The notes beneath the pieces are model-generated. The model was not told the DNA's origin and ran no database searches. It was given only the letters and a program-made list of their open reading frames with translations. Position numbers and translations under genes: made by a program. Positions 19,180 to 54,972 of a stretch of DNA of 64,000 nucleotides are shown here, piece after piece; the stretch's first letter is position 1, and every line of letters starts with the position of its first letter. Origin of the DNA: a virus; IMG/VR virus record IMGVR_UViG_3300005805_000056, positions 29,637 through 93,636 of that record; one strand, written 5' to 3'.

Positions 19180-20050
19180 GGTGAATTCTGTTCGACGCAT
19201 ACTGGGTGAGTTTACTGGCACTGGTTCCATGGGCGCAGTTGAAGTTGTGCCTGTCATGGTTAACACAGCGTCGTCTACTCATCAGCAGCCTCGTCGAAAG
19301 GTGTTACCTCATCTGAGACGTAAGCGCAAACCCGTGTCTGAAACAGTCACGGCTGATGTGGCTCCTGTGCTGGTAAATCCAGCCCCAGAGCTCATGGCCA
19401 GACTGAGAGACAGAGTCAATCCTAAGGACAGGAAGAAGTCGGCCATCGAGTCAATTCTGGGAGAGGCTGAAGACAAAAGCCTAATACCAGCCGATGCTGA
19501 CCCACTTCTGACCACAAAGGAAGTTGAGGATGCAGAGAAGGTAAAGCATAACACTGTCAACTTAGACAAGGAAGACCTTCTTCAACCATCACTCGCTCTT
19601 GTCGCTCCAGACACCACTCCAAATGCGACTAAGGAACTTGATCCATCTCTAGTTCCAAATCGTGATCCGGCTTTGTCAACCATCTTGGGTGATAAGCCGT
19701 CTGCTGGTCCAACAAACACGGTTAGGACCGAATCTTCGAAGAAGGTCGAGACTCCAAAAATACAGGAGTCAGTGATCAATGAACCGAAGAGCATTGAGGA
19801 GAGTTTGCCTTCTTTTGAAATGCCCCGTCCCCCTGGAGAGTTTCTCCGGTCGATTGGTGACATTACAGGAGAGGGACGAGAAGAGAAGCCAAAGGTTGAG
19901 TTAGTCGTTGGCAACTCTTCAAATCCTGTCGGCGCTACAGTATCAGAAGGAATGTTAGGTGCTTCAGAGATGCCAACTCCTAAGGAGGCCAACATCGATA
20001 GAACCATGGACGCATTCCGAAGATTTCATCGAGTTAAAACACAAAAGTAA
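19136..20050 (+). CDS. Low-complexity putative internal head protein (likely start GTG 19180)
   Basis: Disordered; three ILG(E/D) motifs and many xxES sites. Confidence 0.5.
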   Translation: MTRFLFKSINLLPFKVNSVRRILGEFTGTGSMGAVEVVPVMVNTASSTHQQPRRKVLPHLRRKRKPVSETVTADVAPVLVNPAPELMARLRDRVNPKDRKKSAIESILGEAEDKSLIPADADPLLTTKEVEDAEKVKHNTVNLDKEDLLQPSLALVAPDTTPNATKELDPSLVPNRDPALSTILGDKPSAGPTNTVRTESSKKVETPKIQESVINEPKSIEESLPSFEMPRPPGEFLRSIGDITGEGREEKPKVELVVGNSSNPVGATVSEGMLGASEMPTPKEANIDRTMDAFRRFHRVKTQK

Positions 20051-20064
20051 TTAGAACAGAATTT

Positions 20065-22500
20065 ATGGCTACCTCACCTACGACATTCCCGGGGTTTTAT
20101 GCTTCTGTAATTGACAAGAGTTTTGCTCCTGTCACTCTCAGTCGTTTTCGTGGCGGACTCACTGGCGTTGCCAACAAGGGACCGTTCAACACTCCAACTC
20201 TGGTAAACTCTCTGACGGAGTTCGCCAACAAGTTCGGTGACTCGAATGTCACCAACGATGCTGGTTGGGCCGGTCAGTTGGCTGTGACCGCCGCTTCAGT
20301 TGCTGACTTCAGCGGCAGCAGCTTGATTGTCCGCATTGGCCATCAGTACGAGTCAACAGGCGTTGTTGACAATGCTAGCGGCGCTGCTTCTGGCACATCC
20401 ACAATCACAGTCACAAATGCCAATCACTTTACTGTTGGTGATTACATCAGAATTATTGATGCTCAAGGCGAAGTTGAGACTACCTCCAACGCTGTAATCT
20501 CTAACGTTAATGTGGGTGCGGACACCATTACTATTGATACTCCTCTGCAGTACACCTACGCGAATGGTTCAACCATCTATCGTAGCTCTCAATCTGGTGC
20601 GGCGACCTCTGCTGAAGCATTCCTCTCAGCTTTTACCTTTGTTACCAACAGAGTGGGTTCTGGTTCCTCTGCTACTGTCTCTGGAACCAAGGGTGAGTTT
20701 ACCTTGGAGTGCACTGCCGACCTAAGCAAGAAGACTATCACAGCTATCAGTGCTTCAGGCGGCACAGTGACTGCCACTACATCCTCTGCTCACAACTACG
20801 CAGTTGGTGACCAAATCAAAATCGAGAATGTTGTTGCTTCCAGTGGCAATGGTGTCTTTAACGGCACATACACACTTCTCACTGCCTCTGGTAGCACATT
20901 CACCTACGCCTCACTAACATCTTTCAGTGATACTGGCATATCAGCCACCGTTGGTGGTGTGATGACGGCTGCTGCCCTTTCTGCCGGTGATCTTATCAAG
21001 ATCAGTAACTCTACCAACCCAACAGTTGGTCTAGCGACTGATACAGGTGAAGTGCTAGTAAAATCCGTGGTGGCCAACAATACCACTGGTGGATGCACAA
21101 TCACACTGTATCCTTCAGGTGTAACCTCACTGGGTTATCAGTCTCTCCCTCTCCAAGCCAACTACACCACCGCTCGCATCTACAAGGTCAAGCGCGCTGA
21201 TGGCCTTGATAGTGGTGGCGCTTTCGACACATACAGAATTCTTCACCTGTGGGCTTCTTCTGAAGGCACCTGGGCCAACTCTGATTCAGCCACCAACTCT
21301 AACCTGGTGGTTGGTATTGGCCCTGGCTCCGCGGCTGGTTCCAAGAAGTTGCTGGTTTTCTACAACACTGAGTTGGTTGAGACGATCGACAACCTGACGT
21401 ATTTGGATTCCACAGCGGACACCTTCTTCCCAACTAAGGTCAATGCCACATCGGCTTATGTTCGCGTTGGATATGATGGCATCGCTGACGAATTCTTGGT
21501 CAATGATGTTCCTCCAGCAAACACTCTTGATGGCTGGAACATTACTAACCTCGGTGGTAAGACCAACGTTGCTAACTTCACTGGTGGCGACAATGGCGCT
21601 AACACTGAGAATTCTGACTGGGTGGGCGATCTCAATCCTACCACTGACCTCTACACTGGATTCCAGTCGTTCCGCAATGAGACTGACTACCAAGTCAACG
21701 TTCTCGCCATACCTGGTGCCACTGACACTGACTTGCAACAAAACCTTGTTCAAGTCGCTCGTGTGTTGAATGCTGTGGCCATCCTAGACGTGGCTGAAAC
21801 CACTGTTCCTCGTCAGTATGCTGATTGGCGGAATGCTGCTGGTCAGTTTACCAATCGTACAAAGATTGATGACTGGCACGGTGCGTTGTTTGCCAACTGG
21901 GTTGACATCATTGATCCGTACACCACTGAAACTCGCCGCGTTCCACCTTCAGTTGAAGTGGTTCGCTGCATGGCTCGTACGTTCAACAACGACAAGCCAT
22001 GGTACGCCACTGCTGGTGAGATTCGCGGTTTCTGTGACAACGCCCAAGGCCTCCAGTTCAGAACGATTAACTTCGCTTCTAAGACTCAAGCCTATGAGAG
22101 CAACGTCAATCTGATCGTCAGCAACAACGGACGCATTCAGATCTACGGTGACCGTACACTACAGGTCGCTGACTCGAAGCTGATGGAGCTTCATGTGGCG
22201 ATCCTGGTGAACTACATTATTGCTAACATCGGTGTCATCGCTCGTCAGTTTGTTTTCGATCCGAATGACACAGTCCTGTTGGCTCAGCTGAATCAAGCCA
22301 TTACCCAGTTCATGGACGGTATACAGAATGAGCGGGGTGTTGAGCAGTACAAGCTCGTGGTTGATGGTTCAAACAACAATGCTGAGACCCGCGCCCTTCG
22401 TGAGGTTATCATCGATCTGGGAATCGTGCCTACCAGCACGGCTGATCGGATCTTCTTGAACCTCACTGTCAATCGCAGTGGTGCTCAGCTGAACGCCTAA
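20065..22500 (+). CDS. Contractile tail sheath protein (gp18-like) with beta-rich insertions
   Basis: PGFY..IDKS, KGPFNTPTLVNS..EF..KFG, PPS, PWYATAGEIRG, IYGDRTL, FVFDPND. Confidence 0.93.
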   Translation: MATSPTTFPGFYASVIDKSFAPVTLSRFRGGLTGVANKGPFNTPTLVNSLTEFANKFGDSNVTNDAGWAGQLAVTAASVADFSGSSLIVRIGHQYESTGVVDNASGAASGTSTITVTNANHFTVGDYIRIIDAQGEVETTSNAVISNVNVGADTITIDTPLQYTYANGSTIYRSSQSGAATSAEAFLSAFTFVTNRVGSGSSATVSGTKGEFTLECTADLSKKTITAISASGGTVTATTSSAHNYAVGDQIKIENVVASSGNGVFNGTYTLLTASGSTFTYASLTSFSDTGISATVGGVMTAAALSAGDLIKISNSTNPTVGLATDTGEVLVKSVVANNTTGGCTITLYPSGVTSLGYQSLPLQANYTTARIYKVKRADGLDSGGAFDTYRILHLWASSEGTWANSDSATNSNLVVGIGPGSAAGSKKLLVFYNTELVETIDNLTYLDSTADTFFPTKVNATSAYVRVGYDGIADEFLVNDVPPANTLDGWNITNLGGKTNVANFTGGDNGANTENSDWVGDLNPTTDLYTGFQSFRNETDYQVNVLAIPGATDTDLQQNLVQVARVLNAVAILDVAETTVPRQYADWRNAAGQFTNRTKIDDWHGALFANWVDIIDPYTTETRRVPPSVEVVRCMARTFNNDKPWYATAGEIRGFCDNAQGLQFRTINFASKTQAYESNVNLIVSNNGRIQIYGDRTLQVADSKLMELHVAILVNYIIANIGVIARQFVFDPNDTVLLAQLNQAITQFMDGIQNERGVEQYKLVVDGSNNNAETRALREVIIDLGIVPTSTADRIFLNLTVNRSGAQLNA

Positions 22501-23166: not shown

Positions 23167-23202
23167 AAAATGGCCCAGAGATCCTCTCTCTGGGCCATTT
23201 TT
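23167..23202. terminator. Bidirectional intrinsic terminator
   Basis: AAAATGGCCCAGAGA-loop-TCTCTGGGCCATTTTT. Confidence 0.88.
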
Positions 23203-23649: not shown

Positions 23650-23965
23650 AGTAGTTGTGGATGACTGTTAGTTTGTTGTGATGACCAACATCAATAGGTC
23701 TAGCAGCGCAGTAGTCTTTGAACTTCTGGTGCAGGTAGTCTTTGGCAGTGTCATTCTTGGGCAATTTCTTCTTATATCGACTGATGTACTCAAGAATTAC
23801 ACAGCGTCCATAGACAATTTGGCTTGAGACAATTCCAACAAACCAGATGGCTGGCAGTACTGAGACAAACCAGACACCTTTGATAAGAAGGAATGCACTT
23901 ACAAATGACAGTGGACCATAGACTACTTGGCCAATTTTGTTGATCAGCCTGAGTACTGAGATTAC
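23588..23965 (-). CDS. Unannotated membrane-protein frame with no canonical start codon at its 5' end
   Basis: 125 open codons (VISVLRLINKIGQVVYGPLSFVSAFLLIKGVWFVSVLPAIWFVGIV...KKKLP) fill a 310-nt gap. Confidence 0.5.
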   Translation of the reverse strand, partial: VISVLRLINKIGQVVYGPLSFVSAFLLIKGVWFVSVLPAIWFVGIVSSQIVYGRCVILEYISRYKKKLPKNDTAKDYLHQKFKDYCAARPIDVGHHNKLTVIHNYYEEASFHYLRECPVRIHCGS

Positions 23966-24465
23966 TTTCCTAGTTCGATGACCGTACAGTTTTTCTTCAA
24001 GGTTTCGACGGAGAGAGGTGAGTTGTCGATGGTCGAGCCGTCTTTCAGGTGCAACGTCACTGTCTTCCCGTTGAACTCGGCAATCGAGATCGCACGCAGG
24101 TTCACTCCGCTCAACGTGAATGCTGGGGTGACCAGACGTCGCTCCACCTTTTGGGTTGGACCAGCCTTGCTCGTCTGGGTCTGAGGGACCGGTGGTAGAC
24201 CCTCGCTCTTATCAATCCAAGAGTGGGCCTTCTCAGTCACAATTGGCTTTTCACCCATCAGCTTGGCAAAAAGCGGAGGGAGGTAACCGTGGTTCTTGGC
24301 CACCTTAAGCAAGGTGGCCTCAATGCCACTGGAATTGGGTGAACAGAGCTTCTGAGAAGCAAGTTCAGCCACGACAGCCGACTTAGTCAGCTTGACACTC
24401 AAAGCTTTTTCCACCTTGTTAAGGGTAGAAACTGCTTGGTCTTTGTTTAGATCACTTAGTTTCAT
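23962..24465 (-). CDS. Hypothetical basic protein
   Basis: 167-aa ORF within the operon. Confidence 0.6.
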   Translation of the reverse strand: MKLSDLNKDQAVSTLNKVEKALSVKLTKSAVVAELASQKLCSPNSSGIEATLLKVAKNHGYLPPLFAKLMGEKPIVTEKAHSWIDKSEGLPPVPQTQTSKAGPTQKVERRLVTPAFTLSGVNLRAISIAEFNGKTVTLHLKDGSTIDNSPLSVETLKKNCTVIELGK

Positions 24466-24697
24466 TGGTTCCTTTTATTACACCTGTGCTATCCTGTAAA
24501 CAAGTTTTTCTCCCCATGGTGACGTTTGACGTCGCCTTTACATCTTTATTTGTGAACTCCCAGATCTCTCCTGAGCTGTCCAGGATCACTGTGAAGAGCT
24601 TCTCAATCTCACTGCCGTAGTCTGTCACAAGCCAGACTCGGCCACGACCTTTCGGTGTTTCAACTTGAAGTGATTGTTGTACCTCTAGTATTGTCAT
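24452..24697 (-). CDS. Small phage hypothetical protein
   Basis: VETPKG..WLVTDYGSE..GEIW; ATGA-coupled to the carbamoyltransferase. Confidence 0.6.
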   Translation of the reverse strand: MTILEVQQSLQVETPKGRGRVWLVTDYGSEIEKLFTVILDSSGEIWEFTNKDVKATSNVTMGRKTCLQDSTGVIKGTNETK

Positions 24698-26430
24698 TGA
24701 AAGTTTCCAATGACAAGAATAGGAGCGGTCATTTGGCCATTTGAAGCCTCAACCTCTTTCAGGTTAAAGGCCATATCCTCAATGGCATCTTTAGCTGAGT
24801 AAACGATAGGAACACCATGAACATTCAGAGATGTATTGATCAACGCTGGATGTTCCGGATAGAGACTTCTGAGGATATTCGAGATAGGCTGAATGTTGTT
24901 TGACTCAATCAGCTGAGGTCTCCCTGAGTATCCATACTTGTTGCTGAACTTTGGATAGGGGTGCATCACACCCCTGAATCGCTCAACGTCCACAGTGGGG
25001 TGGTAGTCCAGCGTAAGGATCATGTAGTCTAGAGATCCAGCTACTCGACTGATGTCGCTGTGGTTGAAGAAAGCATGGGCATGTTGCTTCAACATCACTG
25101 GAGCCATGGGCATAACGGTGTCACGGCCATTCAGTGAATTGATAGTCGCCACATTGTCATTAAATGGCAATGAAAGAGTTGTCGTATTGCACAAGGCTCT
25201 TGGTCCAAATTCCATCGAACCTGTGACTGTATTGACAATCTTATTTTGCTTCAGCTGAGATACAACGAAATCAATATAGCTCTGCTTGTTGTTGAAGTAG
25301 AAGTGTCCAGGCCTGAACTCAGTTCCATTAGCACAGATAATGCCAGGAACACGAAGATCTCTGTGGCCCCACAGGAGGCTGTCCAGACCCATCACAGATC
25401 CCTCATTGTATCTCATCAAGCCAATGGCTGCACCTTGATCACCAGCAAGTGGCGTGGCACAGAACTCACCAGGAATCTTAGATAGAATGTGGTTGTTCAG
25501 CTTGACATTGTAGTGAAGTCCTCCAGTGACAATGATGTTGTCAATTGAGAAGTCGTCGATGATGTTCGTATAGTAGTTTTCGATGATGCACTGAACGAAG
25601 TGGCCAATGATCTTACGTAGATCAGTCTTGCCAAATGCTTCCTTATTCTTGCCAGTGATCTTCTCAATCACTTCATCAAATCTAGCCCACAGCTTATTCT
25701 TTACGCTGATCAAGCGTTCTACACTGATATAGCTTGAGTTGGAGCTTGGATCAGAAGTACGTTTTTGGAATTCATCAGCCCATTTGTGGGCCTCTGTCTG
25801 AAGATTCTTGATCTCTGAGTTGGTCAGCACTTCATCAACCCAGGTCTCATATCCTAAGAATTTATACTCATCCTGGTTTTCTTTCATGCCACAATATGAG
25901 GTGGCATACTGGTAAAGCAAGCCTAGAGAGTTTTCATAGCCATACACGCGATGGATCAGAGACATTGTGTCTGCTGCTGCATTCCACTTGTAGATGGAGA
26001 AGACTTCTTCTTTGTTTCCAAAGCCATCAGCAACACAGATATGAATGGGGTCTAGTGCTGTGGAGTGAGCCTCATAGAAAGCTCTAGCAGCCCAAGCATG
26101 AGCATCGTGATGCGTAAACTGTGGGTTAAGAGTAACGAGTTTTAGCTTGTGAGTGCTGCAAAGTTCCTCCACAAAATGTGGGTTCCAGTGCTTGTCATTG
26201 AACCCATTCTTGTGGAAATCAAAGTCATCAAACCAGTGTGATACATAGAGATACTGGGAACCCAGGACGTTGTTCTGGTGATTCTTAAGACACTCCTCGA
26301 TTGAGAGCTGAGGAAACTGAGATGAGCTCTTGATTCGATTAAGACGTTCCTCTTCATATCCAGCCACAATACGAAATTCATCCGTAGTGATAGCTGACGA
26401 GTTGTGTCCAAGCGTAAGTAGTAAGTTCAT
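24694..26430 (-). CDS. O-carbamoyltransferase (CmcH/NodU/TobZ family), probably acting on 5-hydroxymethylcytosine
   Basis: GHNSSA, EEERLNRIK, HHDAHA, DGFG, TGGLHYNVKLN, AGDQGAAIG, EFGPRAL, PMAP, NTSLNVHGVPIV. Confidence 0.93.
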   Translation of the reverse strand: MNLLLTLGHNSSAITTDEFRIVAGYEEERLNRIKSSSQFPQLSIEECLKNHQNNVLGSQYLYVSHWFDDFDFHKNGFNDKHWNPHFVEELCSTHKLKLVTLNPQFTHHDAHAWAARAFYEAHSTALDPIHICVADGFGNKEEVFSIYKWNAAADTMSLIHRVYGYENSLGLLYQYATSYCGMKENQDEYKFLGYETWVDEVLTNSEIKNLQTEAHKWADEFQKRTSDPSSNSSYISVERLISVKNKLWARFDEVIEKITGKNKEAFGKTDLRKIIGHFVQCIIENYYTNIIDDFSIDNIIVTGGLHYNVKLNNHILSKIPGEFCATPLAGDQGAAIGLMRYNEGSVMGLDSLLWGHRDLRVPGIICANGTEFRPGHFYFNNKQSYIDFVVSQLKQNKIVNTVTGSMEFGPRALCNTTTLSLPFNDNVATINSLNGRDTVMPMAPVMLKQHAHAFFNHSDISRVAGSLDYMILTLDYHPTVDVERFRGVMHPYPKFSNKYGYSGRPQLIESNNIQPISNILRSLYPEHPALINTSLNVHGVPIVYSAKDAIEDMAFNLKEVEASNGQMTAPILVIGNFQ

Positions 26431-27251
26431 GACTTAAAGAATTTCAAATCGTGGTACAGGTGGGTGCTTAGTGCAAAGGGACTTTCAAATGTGAATTCAT
26501 CGTCAAAGAAGTGTCTTAGTTGTAGCATGTCGCCTAACTCATTTGGGTGGAATGTGGGCCACTCAATGAGCGTGGCATGCTCATAGGTAAGATTCTTGTA
26601 TTCAATGTGGAGTGAACCCACATTGTGGAAATAAGTACCCACATCCAATCCTAAAAATGTGGCCATCATCTCCTGCAGCATTGTGAAAAATACCACATCT
26701 GTTCTAAACCCAAAATGAAGTTCATTTGACCTCATTGTAGTGATTAGATTCAATCGGTTATTACGAATCAGAAACTGCAATGAGGTTGTACAGATGTGGT
26801 CACTTGTTCCAGACATGGCAACCTCACGTCTGTTGAACATGATGATGGCTCTTCGTGAGCTTGGGTCTTTTCTAAGAAGATTCAGACAGTGTTGAAACTG
26901 TCTCTCCACCCAAACGTATTGACCATAGTTTGAGTTGACATCACCCTCCTGTGCTCTCTCCCACATCTGTGGGAAATACTGCTTCAACTCAGTGTTTTGC
27001 TTGCCCCAAGCGTACCACGCCCATTGAAGGGCCATATATGGCACAAAAGTAATTGGATCACTTCTAAGGGCTACAACCCTCTCTAGAGGATTATCGATCT
27101 CAATGCAGACATTGATGAACTCATGCCAATCTCCACTAATGGCATGGTGGGATGGGTTATAGTTGTCGCTTATTGGAGATACGTTGGCCTGATCAATCTT
27201 CCTGACTAATGTTGAGTAGGCTTCAGGTACATTCGTGGCGTGGATAATCAT
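26427..27251 (-). CDS. dCMP hydroxymethyltransferase (thymidylate synthase fold, T4 gp42-like)
   Basis: NSNYG, SRRA, catalytic C (HICT), MRSNE...GFRTD with Asp where ThyA has Asn, GSLHI. Confidence 0.82.
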   Translation of the reverse strand: MIIHATNVPEAYSTLVRKIDQANVSPISDNYNPSHHAISGDWHEFINVCIEIDNPLERVVALRSDPITFVPYMALQWAWYAWGKQNTELKQYFPQMWERAQEGDVNSNYGQYVWVERQFQHCLNLLRKDPSSRRAIIMFNRREVAMSGTSDHICTTSLQFLIRNNRLNLITTMRSNELHFGFRTDVVFFTMLQEMMATFLGLDVGTYFHNVGSLHIEYKNLTYEHATLIEWPTFHPNELGDMLQLRHFFDDEFTFESPFALSTHLYHDLKFFKS

Positions 27252-27859
27252 GCGATTTCTGACAGTGCTTCTTCACAGGCACTGAGTATCTGGTCTTCTT
27301 CCTTGCGCACGTCTACCTTAGTCAACTTGGACAAACCTGTAAACAACCCAATGTTCAAAGTTTCAATGAGCTGGTGCTCAATGGTCTGGGTCACCATCAA
27401 GTCGTTGGGTCTCATTGGGTCTTTGACTGTGATGGGCAAAGGCTGCATCATGAAGACAATGTCATAACGCTTCTTTGCTTTGGCCGTCTCTGTAATGGTC
27501 TTGACAAAGTTGACGTAGTCAATCTTCTGGGCATCTGTTAGAGCCTTGATGTCAATGTAGAACGTCGTGTAAAACAAAGAGTCTGCCAGACTTCTGTCTA
27601 CAAGGATCAGCTTGCCACTACCAGAGTTTGCTTCATCCTCCATCTTGATCTTCTCCATGACCACCTTCTGCTGAAGCTTAAAGTAGTTCTGGGCTGAGTT
27701 TCTAACAACGTCAATGGAGGTGATCTTGTCTCTGATGCACTCACCCACGATGTGGACCTTTGAGCCAAAGCGGTCCTTGATCTTGTGCATGAGTGTTGTC
27801 TTTCCAGCATTACAAGGACCTGAAAAGGCGAAAGTGACGTTCATACTTCTCAAGAACAT
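27248..27859 (-). CDS. P-loop nucleotide kinase (NadR/dNMP-kinase-like; likely start ATG 27844)
   Basis: GPCNAGKTT, DRSLAD, YDIVF. Confidence 0.78.
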   Translation of the reverse strand: MFLRSMNVTFAFSGPCNAGKTTLMHKIKDRFGSKVHIVGECIRDKITSIDVVRNSAQNYFKLQQKVVMEKIKMEDEANSGSGKLILVDRSLADSLFYTTFYIDIKALTDAQKIDYVNFVKTITETAKAKKRYDIVFMMQPLPITVKDPMRPNDLMVTQTIEHQLIETLNIGLFTGLSKLTKVDVRKEEDQILSACEEALSEIA

Positions 27860-27876
27860 GAACCGATGCGTGTTCT
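27853..27876. promoter_or_regulatory. Back-to-back GTTCT-class promoters
   Basis: AGAAC 27853-57 (8 nt before minus-strand ATG 27844) and GTTCT 27872-76 (7 nt before ATG 27884). Confidence 0.6.
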
Positions 27877-28705
27877 TAGTGTCATGGCAATTAAGAGTAA
27901 CATCCAGGATTTCAGACCAACACGGGAAAAGTTCTCAAAGAAAATCAGACTTCTCTCTGGTGGGTTCACCACCTTGGACTACTTTCCCAAGGGAGAAATA
28001 ACCATCTACCCATGGGACTCCAAGATGGACGATTGGGTTGTAAAGAACCAGGGTCTGGCACCCAATGATTTCTTGGTTCAGGCTGTCCAACGCATCGTTC
28101 CTCTTGGTCAGTGCCCTGTTCAAAAGCTGGTGTTCAGTGATGTTCAGACCATCTTGTTGGTTTCTCGTGCCATGAGAAACAACTCAGTCTATGCTCACCA
28201 GGCCAAGTGCACAGCTTGTGGTTTCCTCCATCCAGAGGACCATATCCGTATCCCTGATGACATGGAGATGGTGGGTGTTAAGAACGATGGCTACATTGGC
28301 CATGATACTTTTACACTTCCTGATTGTAAGGACGAGGTTTCAATCCGCCCACTAACTGTGGGTGACATTCAACGTTTGGACCAACGTACTGAGATTGAAA
28401 ACTCAACAGTAAGACGAGAGTCAGCCGAACTACTCTGGGGCATTGTTGCCGTGGGTGGTGGCAAGCCTGATTCATTGGAGGAAGTTGATCGTTGGTACGG
28501 TGCTTTGTCACCGGCTGATCAGCTCTATTTTAATCTCATGCGTCGTGAGTTGGACCCTCACCTCAGCCCTGAGATCAAATACTCATGCAATAAGTGTAAG
28601 GCGGAGTTCAGCGTGCCGGTCCAGCTGGACTCCGAGTTTTTTCGTCAGAGAGTCCGAAAGGGCCCTATACGACAGGTGGCACAGAGTGTGGATGGTAGCG
28701 ACTAA
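27866..28705 (+). CDS. Baseplate hub/tail assembly chaperone (T4 gp26-like; likely start ATG 27884)
   Basis: LVFSDVQTILLVSR, CTAC, TLPDC..VSIRPLTVGD, CNKC, ends ..EFF. Confidence 0.75.
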   Translation: MRVLSVMAIKSNIQDFRPTREKFSKKIRLLSGGFTTLDYFPKGEITIYPWDSKMDDWVVKNQGLAPNDFLVQAVQRIVPLGQCPVQKLVFSDVQTILLVSRAMRNNSVYAHQAKCTACGFLHPEDHIRIPDDMEMVGVKNDGYIGHDTFTLPDCKDEVSIRPLTVGDIQRLDQRTEIENSTVRRESAELLWGIVAVGGGKPDSLEEVDRWYGALSPADQLYFNLMRRELDPHLSPEIKYSCNKCKAEFSVPVQLDSEFFRQRVRKGPIRQVAQSVDGSD

Positions 28706-36684: not shown

Positions 36685-37734
36685 TTAACCCATTAGTTCT
36701 TGGCCAAAGGCCAACAAATCCTCCTCCATGACTTGAATGCCTTTCTTGTCTGGAGGGTTATTTTTAACGTAGGCCTTCATAAGGCTCTCCACATCAAATG
36801 TCACGTCCTTTTGGACTGTTTCAACATTTGCTTGACCTGGAGCTGACTCAATATAATCATAGACTGGAATAGCTCTATGGGACAGTGGGTGCCCATAGAA
36901 TCTTTGAGCCTCTTCAAAAGATTTCAGCTTTACTTCAAATCGATCCTCTGACTCTTGTCTTACTGTGGCTTCGAACTGCTCCAAACTCTGCCGATGATAC
37001 TGCGGCATCTTAGTGTTTACCAGTTCAGCTTTACCAGTCTCTGTATCGAGAACCATAACATACTTGGTCTCATTCAGCTCACCAAAATCTTGCTGAAAGG
37101 GCGAACCAACGTAGAAATGATTGGGTTTGAACTGCTGGTGTTTGTGGATGTGGCCTAGGAAGGCAGCATCAACTTGTGGAATGTCATCAGCCACCAGCCC
37201 ATCTTGTAATGTCATGCCATGGGCCAAAGCGCCCTGGATTGAGAAGTGGCCAAGCAAGATAACCTTACGACGTGTGCCTGCAACTGTCCTGGCCTTCTGG
37301 ACAGTCTGAATGATGGTCTTCTTCAGTTCCTCCTCATTGTCAATGTATGAGACACAGGCAAATACGGCCTCACAGCCAAAGTCAATCACACCATGAGACT
37401 TTATCACAGTAAAGATACCATCATACATGACACCAGGGTGGACCTCTGTGCTTCTAAGCCACTGCTCATGGTTGCCCATGAGCTTGATGTTTCGACCTTT
37501 GAAAGCTGACAGTGGCGTCAGCACTGAGTGGATCGTGGGAATAGGAATGGCTTGACGATCATCCGTGGTGTCTCCAAGATCAATGAGGCCATCACACTTA
37601 TGCTTGTCATAGGTTTTCTTAAGAAACGCCATGAAGGTGTTGACACGCCACCTTTGAAGTGGCATGCTTGGGTCATTGAAACATCTCTCATGGCCATCAG
37701 CAGCCTGGAGATCACCATAGATGAGGAATCGCAT
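36685..37734 (-). CDS. SbcD/Mre11/gp47-like metallophosphoesterase nuclease
   Basis: GDLQ, LGDTTD, GNHE, GHF, GHIH, YVGSPFQQDFGE. Confidence 0.9.
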   Translation of the reverse strand: MRFLIYGDLQAADGHERCFNDPSMPLQRWRVNTFMAFLKKTYDKHKCDGLIDLGDTTDDRQAIPIPTIHSVLTPLSAFKGRNIKLMGNHEQWLRSTEVHPGVMYDGIFTVIKSHGVIDFGCEAVFACVSYIDNEEELKKTIIQTVQKARTVAGTRRKVILLGHFSIQGALAHGMTLQDGLVADDIPQVDAAFLGHIHKHQQFKPNHFYVGSPFQQDFGELNETKYVMVLDTETGKAELVNTKMPQYHRQSLEQFEATVRQESEDRFEVKLKSFEEAQRFYGHPLSHRAIPVYDYIESAPGQANVETVQKDVTFDVESLMKAYVKNNPPDKKGIQVMEEDLLAFGQELMG

Positions 37735-38291
37735 CAGATCAGGTCCAAAATGGCACTACGAATGGCCAAGCTATTGTCCTTGATAAATGGTCCCAGTGAT
37801 GGAGCCCATTGTAGATCAAGCAACTTGCCCAACTCAGTGTAGTGCACTTTTCGCATTTCAGGGTGCTTGTCTGGCTCCTTGTTGACCATGGTATCCAGAG
37901 TCTTCACAGGCAGAGCCATCACAGTGATCACCCAGTGCCAGTTGTCTACAACCGCGATATTTTCGTACACACCAATCATCTTGGCCTTGGTGTAGTCAGC
38001 TTCCAAGTTCAGTTCCTCTTGGAGTTCAACAGCAAACTGTTGGGCTAATGAAAAACCACACTCATGCAACCCAGATGGCAGTGACCAGCAGTTCTTAGCT
38101 GAGCGGACGTTTGGCCCACGATAGATCAAGGGGAAGTAACCCTCTGGATCAACTGCAAAGCCAGACACAGTTACATTGGGTACTGGCACGGCAGAATTAC
38201 CATCTGTGCGCCATTTCCAGTTAGCTTTGATAGGTTCAATCACAAACTCAAGAACTGTACTTAAGTCGTGACAATTGATCGAATACTTCAA
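37734..38291 (-). CDS. Nudix hydrolase (likely start GTG 38243)
   Basis: WSLPSGLHECG......ELQEELNL Nudix box; NKEPDKH; GTTCT at 38251-55. Confidence 0.82.
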   Translation of the reverse strand: MKYSINCHDLSTVLEFVIEPIKANWKWRTDGNSAVPVPNVTVSGFAVDPEGYFPLIYRGPNVRSAKNCWSLPSGLHECGFSLAQQFAVELQEELNLEADYTKAKMIGVYENIAVVDNWHWVITVMALPVKTLDTMVNKEPDKHPEMRKVHYTELGKLLDLQWAPSLGPFIKDNSLAIRSAILDLI

Positions 38292-52871: not shown

Positions 52872-53330
52872 ATGCCATTTGAGTACCATGCCAGAGTCAG
52901 GCAAGTCGTTGATGGTGACACCATTATTGTCGATATCGACTTGGGCTTTGATGTGGTCCTAGCTAACCAAAAGGTTAGATTCAATGGCATTGACACGCCT
53001 GAGAGTCGTACTGCTGACAAGGTTGAAAAGGTATTTGGTCTTCACAGCAAGGATTTTGTCAAAGGATTTGTTGATAAATGCCAAAACCAGGTGATAGTTC
53101 GCACCTATCTGAGTGATTCCACTGAGAAATTTGGCCGAATCCTGGGTGACATACTAAATCCCAACGACACTAGTAAGTCTCTTAATGAGATCATGATTGA
53201 GAGTGGACTTGCGGTAAAATACTTGGGTGAGAACAAGGCCCTGGTATCAGAAGCTCATCTCAAAAACAGAAAACGCCTGATTGACTCAGGCGCTGTAAAG
53301 ATGACATACAAAGAAGCTGGAGTTTCCTAG
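52872..53330 (+). CDS. Thermonuclease (SNase-like) nuclease
   Basis: VVDGDT, VRFNGIDTPE, EKFGRILG, LNE.MI..GLA. Confidence 0.9.
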   Translation: MPFEYHARVRQVVDGDTIIVDIDLGFDVVLANQKVRFNGIDTPESRTADKVEKVFGLHSKDFVKGFVDKCQNQVIVRTYLSDSTEKFGRILGDILNPNDTSKSLNEIMIESGLAVKYLGENKALVSEAHLKNRKRLIDSGAVKMTYKEAGVS

Positions 53331-53986
53331 TCTTTGAAGCCTCTGGCTTTTCTCTCTTTGTAGATTAAGTTGTCTCTTCTTCCTGCCTCTGAGTTGATTC
53401 TCGTCAACTCATCTGTCTGGTATTTGAACCATTCATGCTTGATTGGTTGCTTGTTCACATGAGCTAGCTTGCCCATGCTGCTCATTATCTCTGTCTGCTC
53501 ACAGTCACAACATTCTGATTCGTAGACTGGATTATAGATCCAACCAAAGTACCTGTAGCATTCATTAGTCATCACTGGCAGTGTGATAAGATCACGCCAG
53601 TGATCTCCTAAACGTGGATCATCATTGTAATTGATCATCCACGCCCATGGGTTTTCTTTGATGTCTTCTCTGATCTGAGCATCCCAACCCTGATGAGGAA
53701 TCATATCATCAGCCACTGCCACAAGAATGTCCCACCCATCCGGTGAGATACCATGATTTATGGCTGCAATTTTCCCCTTGGGTGGTGTCACTGTCAGCCC
53801 AATTCTTTTTGGACTGCTTCTAGACCCGTAGTCTCTTGATAGATCCTTCGGCCAGGGATCATCCTCATCGACTGTTACTAGAAAATCAACCTTGTCAAGA
53901 TCCTCACAAGTAAAGATGTAGTTTTGGAAGTTTTCCTTAAACTGATTCCACCTGTGCTTTGTGGGATATTTGACTAGTATTCTCAT
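53327..53986 (-). CDS. GT-A fold glycosyltransferase
   Basis: YPTK.R, VTVDEDD, GKIAAIN, VADDMIP, WD, IYNP.Y.S..CD. Confidence 0.75.
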   Translation of the reverse strand: MRILVKYPTKHRWNQFKENFQNYIFTCEDLDKVDFLVTVDEDDPWPKDLSRDYGSRSSPKRIGLTVTPPKGKIAAINHGISPDGWDILVAVADDMIPHQGWDAQIREDIKENPWAWMINYNDDPRLGDHWRDLITLPVMTNECYRYFGWIYNPVYESECCDCEQTEIMSSMGKLAHVNKQPIKHEWFKYQTDELTRINSEAGRRDNLIYKERKARGFKD

Positions 53987-54972
53987 ACTGCCACTTCAGC
54001 CTTAATTGTTGGGTGGCTGCTGTAACCAACCAGCTGAATGTCATCAAAATTGAAACTGAAAAGGTCTGTCTTTGCAAGATTCAACGTGACATACGGAGAT
54101 GTGAATGGAGCCCGTGTCAACTGTAGCTTGGCCTGGTCTATGTGGTTTTGGTATAGATGGAGGTCACCATAGGTGTGGATAAACTCACCAGGCACCATTT
54201 CCACACAGTGTGCCATCATCTGAAGGAGCAGAGCGTAGCTGGCGATATTGAATGGCACACCCAGGAAGAGATCACAGCTGCGCTGGTACAGCAAGCAGTT
54301 GAGCTTGCGTCGACCATCTGAGAGCACCTCTGTGTTGAAGTGAAACAGCACATGGCAGGGTGGCAAGGCACAATGATCCACCCAGTAGGGATGCCAAGCA
54401 CTCACAATCATGCGCCTGTCATCCGGGTTGGTCTTAAGCTTGCCAACTACTTTCTTCAGCTGGTCAACAGTGTCAAGAGCATCAAATCCATTAGCTGATG
54501 CAATGGTCTCATAGTCATTGTAGAAGGGGAAAGCCCTCCACATGCTGCCATATGTGCCCATTCCCAAGTCACCCCAACGATTCGCAAAGACTGAGGAATT
54601 TTTGATTTCCTTAATAAAGTTAGACTGAGAAAGTTTTTGCACTGGCACCTTTATCAGGGTGCCAGCTCTTCCCTCAATATCAAACTCAGGAGTGCTTAAG
54701 TAACGCTGGTAGGCCCAATCGTCCCAGATGTGGACGTCATTATCCACCAGGTACTTGATGTTGGTGCTGCCACTGATGAACCAGAGCAGCTCGTGAACAA
54801 TGCCCTTGAAGAAGACCTTCTTGGTAGTCAACAGGGGAAAGCCCTGAGACAAGTCAAATCTGGCTTGGGCTCCAAAGACACCAATGGTGTCCACGCCTGT
54901 CCGATTTTTCTTGGGCTTTCCCTCCTGTAGGACCTTCCTAAGGAGACCCAAGTAGGTCTCGTCATGTATCAT
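53983..54972 (-). CDS. thyA: Thymidylate synthase
   Basis: RTG, FPLLTTKK, ELLWF, DRRMIVSAW, LPPCH, QRSCDLFLGVPFNIASY, GDLHLY. Confidence 0.97.
   Translation of the reverse strand: MIHDETYLGLLRKVLQEGKPKKNRTGVDTIGVFGAQARFDLSQGFPLLTTKKVFFKGIVHELLWFISGSTNIKYLVDNDVHIWDDWAYQRYLSTPEFDIEGRAGTLIKVPVQKLSQSNFIKEIKNSSVFANRWGDLGMGTYGSMWRAFPFYNDYETIASANGFDALDTVDQLKKVVGKLKTNPDDRRMIVSAWHPYWVDHCALPPCHVLFHFNTEVLSDGRRKLNCLLYQRSCDLFLGVPFNIASYALLLQMMAHCVEMVPGEFIHTYGDLHLYQNHIDQAKLQLTRAPFTSPYVTLNLAKTDLFSFNFDDIQLVGYSSHPTIKAEVAV

Follow-up and report, generated by a model that had tools for sequence, protein, structure and literature searches.

Predicted cytosine-hypermodification cassette of an uncultured jumbo myovirus combines a carbamoyltransferase with a Gln-type thymidylate synthase paralogue and a dedicated kinase

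Carbamoyltransferase domains are enriched on the contigs of cytosine-modified phages, and their co-occurrence with thymidylate synthase (TS) homologues is found only on modified contigs (Yang et al., eLife 2021, PMC8670742). One such enzyme acts in vitro on 5-hydroxymethyl-deoxycytidine (5hmdC) in single-stranded DNA (ssDNA) and on 5hmdCTP, giving 5-carbamoyloxymethyl-dC with carbamoyl phosphate and ATP; it is specific for 5hmdC among the tested substrates, a panel that leaves 5-hydroxy-dC outside (PMC8670742). Among the TS homologues directed at cytosine, hydroxymethylases are marked by an acidic residue at the position of L143 (E. coli numbering, used throughout for TS positions), which admits water (PMC13326640), and those with N177D together with D169N are flavin-dependent 5-hydroxy-dCMP synthases, for example RB69 gp48 (2026; PMC13326640). 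Here we describe a cassette that encodes a P-loop kinase (P0001), a TS-fold enzyme (P0002) and an O-carbamoyltransferase (P0003). It lies in a window of 64,000 nucleotides, the whole stretch that was analysed, comprising bases 29637-93636 of the 93.6-kb IMG/VR virus record IMGVR_UViG_3300005805_000056. The record is rated 41% complete, which implies a genome of ~230 kb.

The cassette is a real, conserved cytosine-hypermodification module of a known kind, and what sets it apart is a TS paralogue of the Gln type that is linked to a dedicated kinase. From the comparisons below, it would belong to an uncultured jumbo myovirus of ~230 kb and its product is most likely 5-carbamoyloxymethylcytosine (5cmC). 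The gene neighbourhood was surveyed within 6 kb of 65 IMG/VR viral loci with full-length P0003 homologues (30-100% identity); homologues are also present in Bacteroides, Acinetobacter and Xanthomonas (Xp15) phages. A TS-fold gene lies within this distance of the transferase at 55 of the 65 loci and a P0001-type kinase at 36. Asp at N177 and the catalytic Cys are present in all neighbouring TS-fold open reading frames (ORFs; 77/77). With TS-fold and kinase genes at so many of the loci, the cassette is not a chance juxtaposition. The kinase and the type of TS-fold gene go together closely. Glu at E58 is missing from a TS-fold gene at 24 of the 65 loci, and at every one of these (24/24) the kinase abuts or overlaps that gene, with a gap of at most 58 nt. 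A Glu-less gene is present at none of the 29 loci that lack the kinase, and 21 of these loci have the canonical type only. The P0001 family is found almost only beside these carbamoyltransferases; in cultured phages it occurs in only six Bacteroides phages, all of which also have the transferase, and in the protein atlas the kinase matches viral AAA_28 clusters only. The Xp15 and Acinetobacter phages have no P0001-type kinase, and a PRA-PH (MazG-like) gene follows the transferase instead, as Yang et al. noted.

In the window, the three genes are joined by ATGA couplings on the minus strand, as the preliminary description had it, and an 81-aa ORF is coupled likewise as a fourth. The junctions are gcATGAtt, tcATGAac and caATGAca, and the stop/start overlap is 4 nt at all three. 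P0003 is thus one more member of the clade whose genes are coupled to Asp-type TS homologues on phage DNA. It has the N-terminal Kae1-like and C-terminal YrdC-like domains of the TobZ/NodU type. Both Carbam_trans_N (1e-17, 65 bits) and Carbam_trans_C (1.2e-24, 87 bits) of Pfam match above cut-off, PHROGs assigns phrog_1601, Nol-like carbamoyltransferase (2e-63), and the PDB matches NovN, GdmN and TobZ span both halves. P0003 was compared by eye with the printed sequence of the enzyme validated in PMC8670742. The two proteins have in common the motifs LLLTLGHN.SAI, THHD.HA.AA, DGFGN, EDEYK.LGY, PLAGDQG, MEFGPRALCNTTTL, NGRDTVMP.APV and LINTS.NVHGVPI, and in place of MEFGPRALCNTTTL other family members have RALGN. 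With one clade member active in vitro and all TS neighbours of the Asp type, a cytosine-directed C5 modification ending in a carbamate, as first proposed for this locus, is well supported; it is also already known. We found no other phage paper naming 5cmC in the open-access PubMed Central and bioRxiv literature.

P0002 belongs to the TS superfamily and is of the cytosine type. It matches Thymidylat_synt (PF00303) at 1.3e-15 and 57.7 bits (cut-off 24.3), and its PHROGs annotation is thymidylate synthase; the canonical ThyA of the window scores 345.8 bits against the same profile. The best PDB sequence matches are MilA (1.5e-21) and T4 gp42 (1.2e-20), with TS at only ~1e-11. The AlphaFold2 model (pLDDT 89) has MilA (TM 0.75) and the T4 dCMP hydroxymethylase as its top folds, and it also matches the TS fold and the HY126 dCMP hydroxylase structures 9iqu and 9iqc. 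Residue N177, which decides the choice of pyrimidine, is Asp185 in P0002 (FRTD) and aligns with Asp179 of T4 gp42 (FRND). The corresponding segments are RSNELHFGFRTD in P0002 and RSCDLFLGVPFN in ThyA, where the residue is Asn, so that the Asn/Asp difference pointed out earlier between the two proteins of this phage is borne out by the alignment with gp42. At L143, acidic in hydroxymethylases, P0002 has Asp151 (DHIC, compared with DFMC in T4) and ThyA has Leu. The nucleophile C146 is kept as Cys154, and the phosphate-binding residues R126, R166 and S167 are kept as Arg133, Arg174 and Ser175; these four residues of P0002 are invariant in the alignments.

Three other active-site positions are changed. 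The catalytic Glu (E58, or E60 in T4) is Gln76 in P0002 (LQWAWY, compared with RELEWY in T4 and AEALWY in MilA). D169, which contacts the pterin, is Glu177 (RSNE instead of RSND), and this position is Glu or Asp in the P0002 subfamily. H207-x-Y209, which presumably contacts the deoxyribose, reads HIEY. Gly173, the Trp at the W80 position and the acidic character of residue 169 are retained in P0002 and conserved across its subfamily. In a search of 1.8 billion cluster representatives, Gln stands at E58 in 25 of the best 150 matches, nearly all the closest ones included; these 25 all keep the Cys and Asp185, and most of the remaining matches have Glu. The invariance of Gln across the nearest homologues identifies it as a subfamily marker rather than decay. 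As read from the alignments, the predicted active-site pattern of P0002 fits neither the 5-hydroxymethyl (5hm)-dCMP synthases, from which it departs at the catalytic Glu and at Asp169, nor the flavin-dependent 5-hydroxy-dCMP synthases, which have Asn at D169. RB69 gp48 in our alignment has Phe at E58, Asn at D169 (RSQN) and Val at G173. The preliminary assignment of P0002 as a dCMP hydroxymethylase therefore stands as far as the cytosine-type Asp is concerned, and fails for a plain gp42-type enzyme.

P0001 has the fold of mononucleotide and nucleoside kinases. Pfam gives AAA_28 (2.9e-14) and a weak match to dNK (3e-5), and PHROGs gives thymidylate kinase (1e-15). Its AlphaFold2 model (pLDDT 93) finds thymidylate kinase (TMPK), deoxycytidine and deoxynucleoside kinases (dCK/dNK) and AbmG as the best Foldseek matches, with TM 0.5-0.7 and a probability of 1.00 for TMPK and dCK/dNK. 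The family profile weakly matches S. aureus TMPK (7.6e-5) and Giardia dNK (8.9e-5), covering the P-loop and DRS region, and FSGxCxxGKTT and DRS are invariant in the family, as expected for the TMPK/deoxynucleoside kinase superfamily. Membership in the T4 gp1 family was rejected, as there is no sequence or profile similarity: a 25-sequence P0001 profile had no match at E<=1 in the whole T4 genome, and the gp1 structures 1DEK and 1DEL are absent from the top 50 fold matches. The P0001 profile likewise had no match in the SP10, Xp15 and Acinetobacter phage genomes. Kinship with the RB69p045 kinase was also rejected, because only the P-loop aligns. The fold favours a mononucleotide substrate, in which case P0001 would be a functional analogue of T4 gp1, and it is plausible from the model that P0001 feeds hm-dCMP into the dNTP pool.

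Close relatives of the virus are the IMG/VR records 3300008107_000088 and 3300032238_001072. A complete relative, the IMG/VR genome G006, is 230,253 bp long, bears terminal repeats and has a completeness rating of 100%. It has 63 of the 128 ORFs of the record in common with it, largely in synteny. A cassette of kinase, Gln-type TS and carbamoyltransferase is found at the equivalent place in G006, after the tail tube gene. G006 also has a ThyA and a TS-fold gene (L091:1414-2244) with the canonical residues E58/D169/G173/D177, which lies downstream of a class II ribonucleotide reductase (RNR) gene at a distance of ~580 bp. About 1.2 kb upstream of that RNR gene, with one ORF between, a tubulin/TubZ-like protein is encoded (L103:2191-3396; G006 182191-183396). 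In the complete genome of Bacteroides phage BF503P2, Glu-less and canonical Asp-type TS genes are likewise both present; each complete genome that could be checked (2/2) thus encodes both types. No RNR is found in the 93.6 kb of our own record, and the parts of G006 matched by its ORFs are limited to ~1-83 kb and 197-229 kb, plus one match near 152 kb. Since the RNR region is missing from the record, the canonical hydroxymethylase may lie in the unsampled part.

We favour the reading in which P0002 comes in addition to a canonical hydroxymethylase, with a probability of about one half. Cytosine would be replaced by a C5-oxygenated, carbamoylated derivative. By analogy with G006, the bulk of 5hm-dCMP would be made by a canonical dCMP hydroxymethylase encoded in the unsampled 59% of the genome. 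P0002 and the kinase would form an added unit, in which P0002 may bind or transform a dCMP derivative and the kinase would convert a modified dNMP to the diphosphate, for use by the host NDP kinase and the phage polymerase. P0003 would transfer a carbamoyl group, derived from carbamoyl phosphate and ATP via carbamoyl-AMP, to the hydroxyl of the nucleotide or of nascent ssDNA, as its relative does in vitro, and the outcome would be restriction-resistant phage DNA. More tentatively, we suggest that the Glu58-less TS paralogue and the abutting TMPK-fold kinase are an undescribed two-enzyme unit on top of the canonical hydroxymethylase and carbamoyltransferase. In other lineages the partner of the kinase is a D169N hydroxylase-type TS paralogue or a fused uracil-DNA glycosylase (UDG) domain.

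Several points weigh against the favoured reading. The canonical hydroxymethylase of this phage is not seen in the 41%-complete record, and P0002 is the only Asp-type TS gene in its 93.6 kb and in four related fragments. Contigs with a canonical TS gene are not tied to this lineage, one protein query having given no match, and the flanking genes of loci L110 and L111 show membership in the same broad phage group only. With only ~35-55% protein identity to G006, this phage may have a different set of genes. The 93.6 kb yielded no dCTPase, dCMP deaminase or dUTPase. 5cmC is known in vitro for a relative only, with no report in cultured-phage virion DNA in the literature found. The kinase-UDG fusion of some relatives hints at action on DNA and not on free nucleotides. 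Finally, since P0002 keeps the W80 Trp, Gly173 and an acidic residue at 169, it may use methylene-tetrahydrofolate and simply be a hydroxymethylase. As further scope, the record gave no match in searches for dCMP deaminase, dUTPase, MazG or UDG, and BLAST with PRA-PH, deaminase and UDG-domain queries found nothing in the record or in G006.

The simpler alternative is the linear T4-like pathway of the preliminary description, in which P0002 is the dCMP hydroxymethylase despite Gln76, P0001 phosphorylates hm-dCMP, P0003 carbamoylates 5-hydroxymethylcytosine (5hmC) and a second Asp-type TS is not needed. We regard this as possible, at odds clearly below even. It agrees with MilA and T4 gp42 being the best matches of P0002 by sequence and fold, with the presence of both published hydroxymethylase markers (Asp at N177 and at L143), with the subfamily-conserved Gly173, Trp and acidic residue, and with P0002 standing as the sole gene of its type in the record and the four fragments. 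However, all characterised hydroxymethylases that we aligned (T4 gp42, MilA, SP10 and SPO1-type gp29) have Glu at E58/E60, both complete genomes with a Glu-less TS gene also hold a canonical one, and the related records are only 10-41% complete. A Gln mutant of T4 gp42, attributed to Hardy et al. in 1995, is reportedly severely impaired.

It is rather improbable that P0002 is folate-independent, either as a flavin-dependent dCMP hydroxylase (RB69 gp48/AfhB-like) or as a Cys-dependent exchanger at the C5 methylene; the final base would then not be 5cmC but, for example, carbamoylated 5-hydroxycytosine or a product with further substitutions. N177D TS-fold enzymes outside folate chemistry do exist (PMC13326640), RB69 gp48 also has no Glu at E58, the P0002 model matches the HY126 hydroxylase, and Glu-less TS genes add to the canonical enzyme and do not replace it. 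Moreover, a second set of TS genes beside the same kinase family, here termed class B, carries the published D169N signature. On the other hand, P0002 has Glu and not Asn at D169, it keeps Gly173 where RB69 gp48 has Val, a tree made with a quick method sets the P0002 clade apart from class B, and the validated carbamoyltransferase is 5hmdC-specific among its tested substrates, which did not include 5-hydroxy-dC.

The class B ORFs (n=20) are found on Bacteroides-phage-like contigs as a second TS-fold gene directly after the kinase, for example at L003:7456-8262 (BF503P2_00036) and L037:8373-9206. They have Met, Leu or Ile instead of Glu at E58 and Leu, Met or Asn at G173; D169N is present in 16 of the 20, and BF503P2_00036 keeps Asp at D169. 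Since the D169N members carry the RB69 gp48 signature, those phages may make 5-hydroxycytosine besides 5hmC. The separation of the P0002 clade from class B in the quick tree suggests that the Glu was lost twice. Xp15 gp36 (L004:7591-8412) and thyA_2 of Acinetobacter phage MD-2021a (L005:8092-8895) are annotated as thymidylate synthase; the Asp that both carry at N177 makes them probable dCMP-directed enzymes. Upstream of the transferase, Xp15 gp40 and the corresponding Acinetobacter gene were considered as further TS-fold genes and rejected, as they are not TS-fold.

Some relatives encode the kinase and a C-terminal family-4-like UDG domain as one fused protein (L022:7736-9025, L016:8140-9414, L019:7532-8866 and L071:4480-5934). 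Such fusions occur in L016, L019, L022/L023 and L071, and L069, cut by the contig end, is probably a sixth. The motifs GEAPG and HP[TA] are present in the fused domain, Fe-S cysteines are not obvious, and the fusion gene adjoins that of the carbamoyltransferase. The fusion keeps a DNA-level role of the kinase possible. P0001 was also considered as a 5-hydroxymethyl-dU DNA kinase (5-HMUDK) and rejected: it has no match to PF18748 (HMUDK_HMUD1) or PF18723 at E<=0.1, SP10 gp186 matches both strongly, and the hhalign probability of P0001 against SP10 gp186 is 1%. That the kinase acts 5-HMUDK-like on the hydroxymethyl of 5hmC in DNA, with the phosphate or carbamate as a leaving group for further substitution, is very improbable, since the UDG fusion, a DNA base-flipping fold in at least five distinct related loci and reminiscent of the kinase-glycosylase-fold fusion in SP10 gp186, and the fact that 5-HMUDK also adjoins a TS-fold hydroxymethylase are outweighed by the missing 5-HMUDK relationship, by the mononucleotide/nucleoside kinase fold of P0001, by the UDG domain not being found in this record and by the inability of a phosphorylated hydroxymethyl to accept a carbamoyl.

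The features of the window are listed in Table 1. The start of the kinase is probably the ATG at 27844 and not at 27859, because its homologues begin at MNV. Tail genes surround the cassette. Those for the sheath and the tube lie upstream, and downstream come a gene with a weak baseplate-hub-like match and one for a FEN-type exonuclease. Jumbo-phage sheaths share only ~25% identity with the tail sheath, and none of 50,697 phage records matched the cassette in megablast. A perfect 15-bp stem with 7 G-C pairs and T runs on both sides is found at 23167-23201 of the window, immediately past the tail tube gene, where it faces the end of the block of minus-strand genes and resembles a two-way terminator. 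Two ORFs, at window 53327-53986 (-) and at G000:C1:18012-18692 (+), match phrog_14945 'glycosyltransferase'. Both match one common region of G006, and one of them overlaps the ThyA stop by 4 nt. A GT9-like ORF of 405 aa lies at G000 19819-21036.

Table 1. Genes of the cassette and other features of the window (window coordinates)
Feature	Coordinates	Strand	Remarks
P0001, P-loop kinase, 203 aa	27859..27248	-	TMPK/dNK fold
P0002, TS-fold cytosine-type enzyme, 274 aa	27251..26427	-	Gln-for-Glu58 subfamily
P0003, NodU/TobZ-type O-carbamoyltransferase, 578 aa	26430..24694	-	clade associated with Asp-type TS-fold genes
P0004, 81-aa ORF	24697..24452	-	ATGA-coupled to carbamoyltransferase; no family match (Pfam, PHROGs)
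P0005, 167-aa ORF	23962..24465	-	14-nt overlap with P0004; no family match (Pfam, PHROGs)
ThyA, canonical thymidylate synthase	53983..54972	-	Asn177, Glu58, Leu143; in-genome comparator
P0007, Nudix-like ORF	37734..38291	-	named in the preliminary description; pathway link unsupported

Other parts of the preliminary description, which had extended the pathway beyond the cassette, did not survive. A Nudix enzyme (P0007) had been proposed to remove dCTP and to be linked to the cassette by a GTTCT class of upstream sequence. P0007 scores 15.7 bits against NUDIX, below the Pfam cut-off of 21.1, and its other matches are weak (phrog_1198, 7e-5; PDB MutT/NUDIX, E 0.006). Measured against the Nudix box Gx5Ex7REUxEExGU, its segment GLHECGFSLAQQFAVELQEELNL keeps the ExxEE core, and the Glu of Gx5E, the Arg of RE and the final Gly are replaced. 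Its stop overlaps the start of a 349-aa SbcD-like metallophosphoesterase gene (phrog_100, 7e-35; window 36685-38291, minus strand for the pair), and in G006 the homologues of the two also adjoin, in the opposite order on the strand. With the low score, the three lost box residues and the coupling to an SbcD-like nuclease gene, a role as dCTP remover is unsupported. There is no GTTCT upstream of P0007, and across the window GTTCT-N7-8-ATG occurs 6 times where 6.4 matches are expected, which is no enrichment. The ~40-nt gap between the kinase and a divergent 279-aa gene (27845-27886) contains AGAAC-N16-GTTCT on the minus strand, so that the kinase and the divergent gene each have a GTTCT 12-13 nt before the ATG. 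The small ORFs downstream had been named as pathway candidates. Homologues of P0004 are present in the close relatives L011-L015 only, and those of P0005 in L011-L015 and L032 only, with none in G006; being confined to close relatives and absent from G006 and all other lineages, both were dropped.

The carbamoyl-hmC route is already known, and another member adds little to it. The published description (Yang 2021) covers one enzyme in vitro; a kinase and a second TS-like enzyme are both missing from it. What is new here is the strict pairing of a dedicated kinase family with Glu-less TS paralogues in several phage lineages, and a Gln-type active-site signature outside both characterised classes of cytosine-directed TS homologues. 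If the two-enzyme unit is real, these phages would produce a second cytosine derivative, or one that is processed further, and the Gln-type enzymes would add a third catalytic class to the cytosine-directed TS homologues, besides folate-dependent hydroxymethylases and flavin-dependent hydroxylases. The chemistry of P0002 could prove new to the TS fold or yield a new cytosine modification. Annotation would gain as well, as many phage 'thymidylate synthase' genes encode Asp-type enzymes.

Compared with described systems, the cassette shows partial likeness to each. 5-HMUDK is also a kinase beside a TS-fold hydroxymethylase, sometimes fused to a DNA-glycosylase-fold domain, but it has no sequence or profile relationship to P0001 and is of a different fold class. 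The flavin-dependent 5-hydroxy-dCMP synthases RB69 gp48, DLP3 gp80 and HY126 AfhB (PMC13326640) resemble P0002 in N177D, in lacking Glu at E58 and in having a TMPK-like kinase gene near the TS homologue; unlike them, P0002 has Glu in place of their D169N and keeps G173. MilA, the CMP hydroxymethylase of mildiomycin biosynthesis (PDB 5b6d, 5jnh), is the best match of P0002 and has Asp at both N177 and L143, whereas it keeps the Glu (AEALWY), acts on a ribonucleotide and belongs to a Streptomyces antibiotic pathway. The T4 hmC pathway (gp42, the gp1 dNMP kinase, the gp56 dCTPase and glucosyltransferases) has the same order of a TS-fold enzyme with Asp179 and Cys, a kinase and a transferase acting on the hydroxyl. 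It differs in that P0002 has Gln at Glu60 and Glu at D169, that the kinase is unmatched in the T4 genome, and that carbamoyl takes the place of glucose. The system of Yang 2021 (PMC8670742) has a two-domain TobZ/NodU carbamoyltransferase beside an Asp-type TS homologue on a phage contig, common motifs and the same predicted product. There the partners are PRA-PH and dCMP deaminase and a kinase is never mentioned, whereas here, with no dCTPase or deaminase in 93.6 kb, the transferase of a predicted jumbo myovirus is accompanied by a dedicated kinase and a Glu-less TS paralogue.

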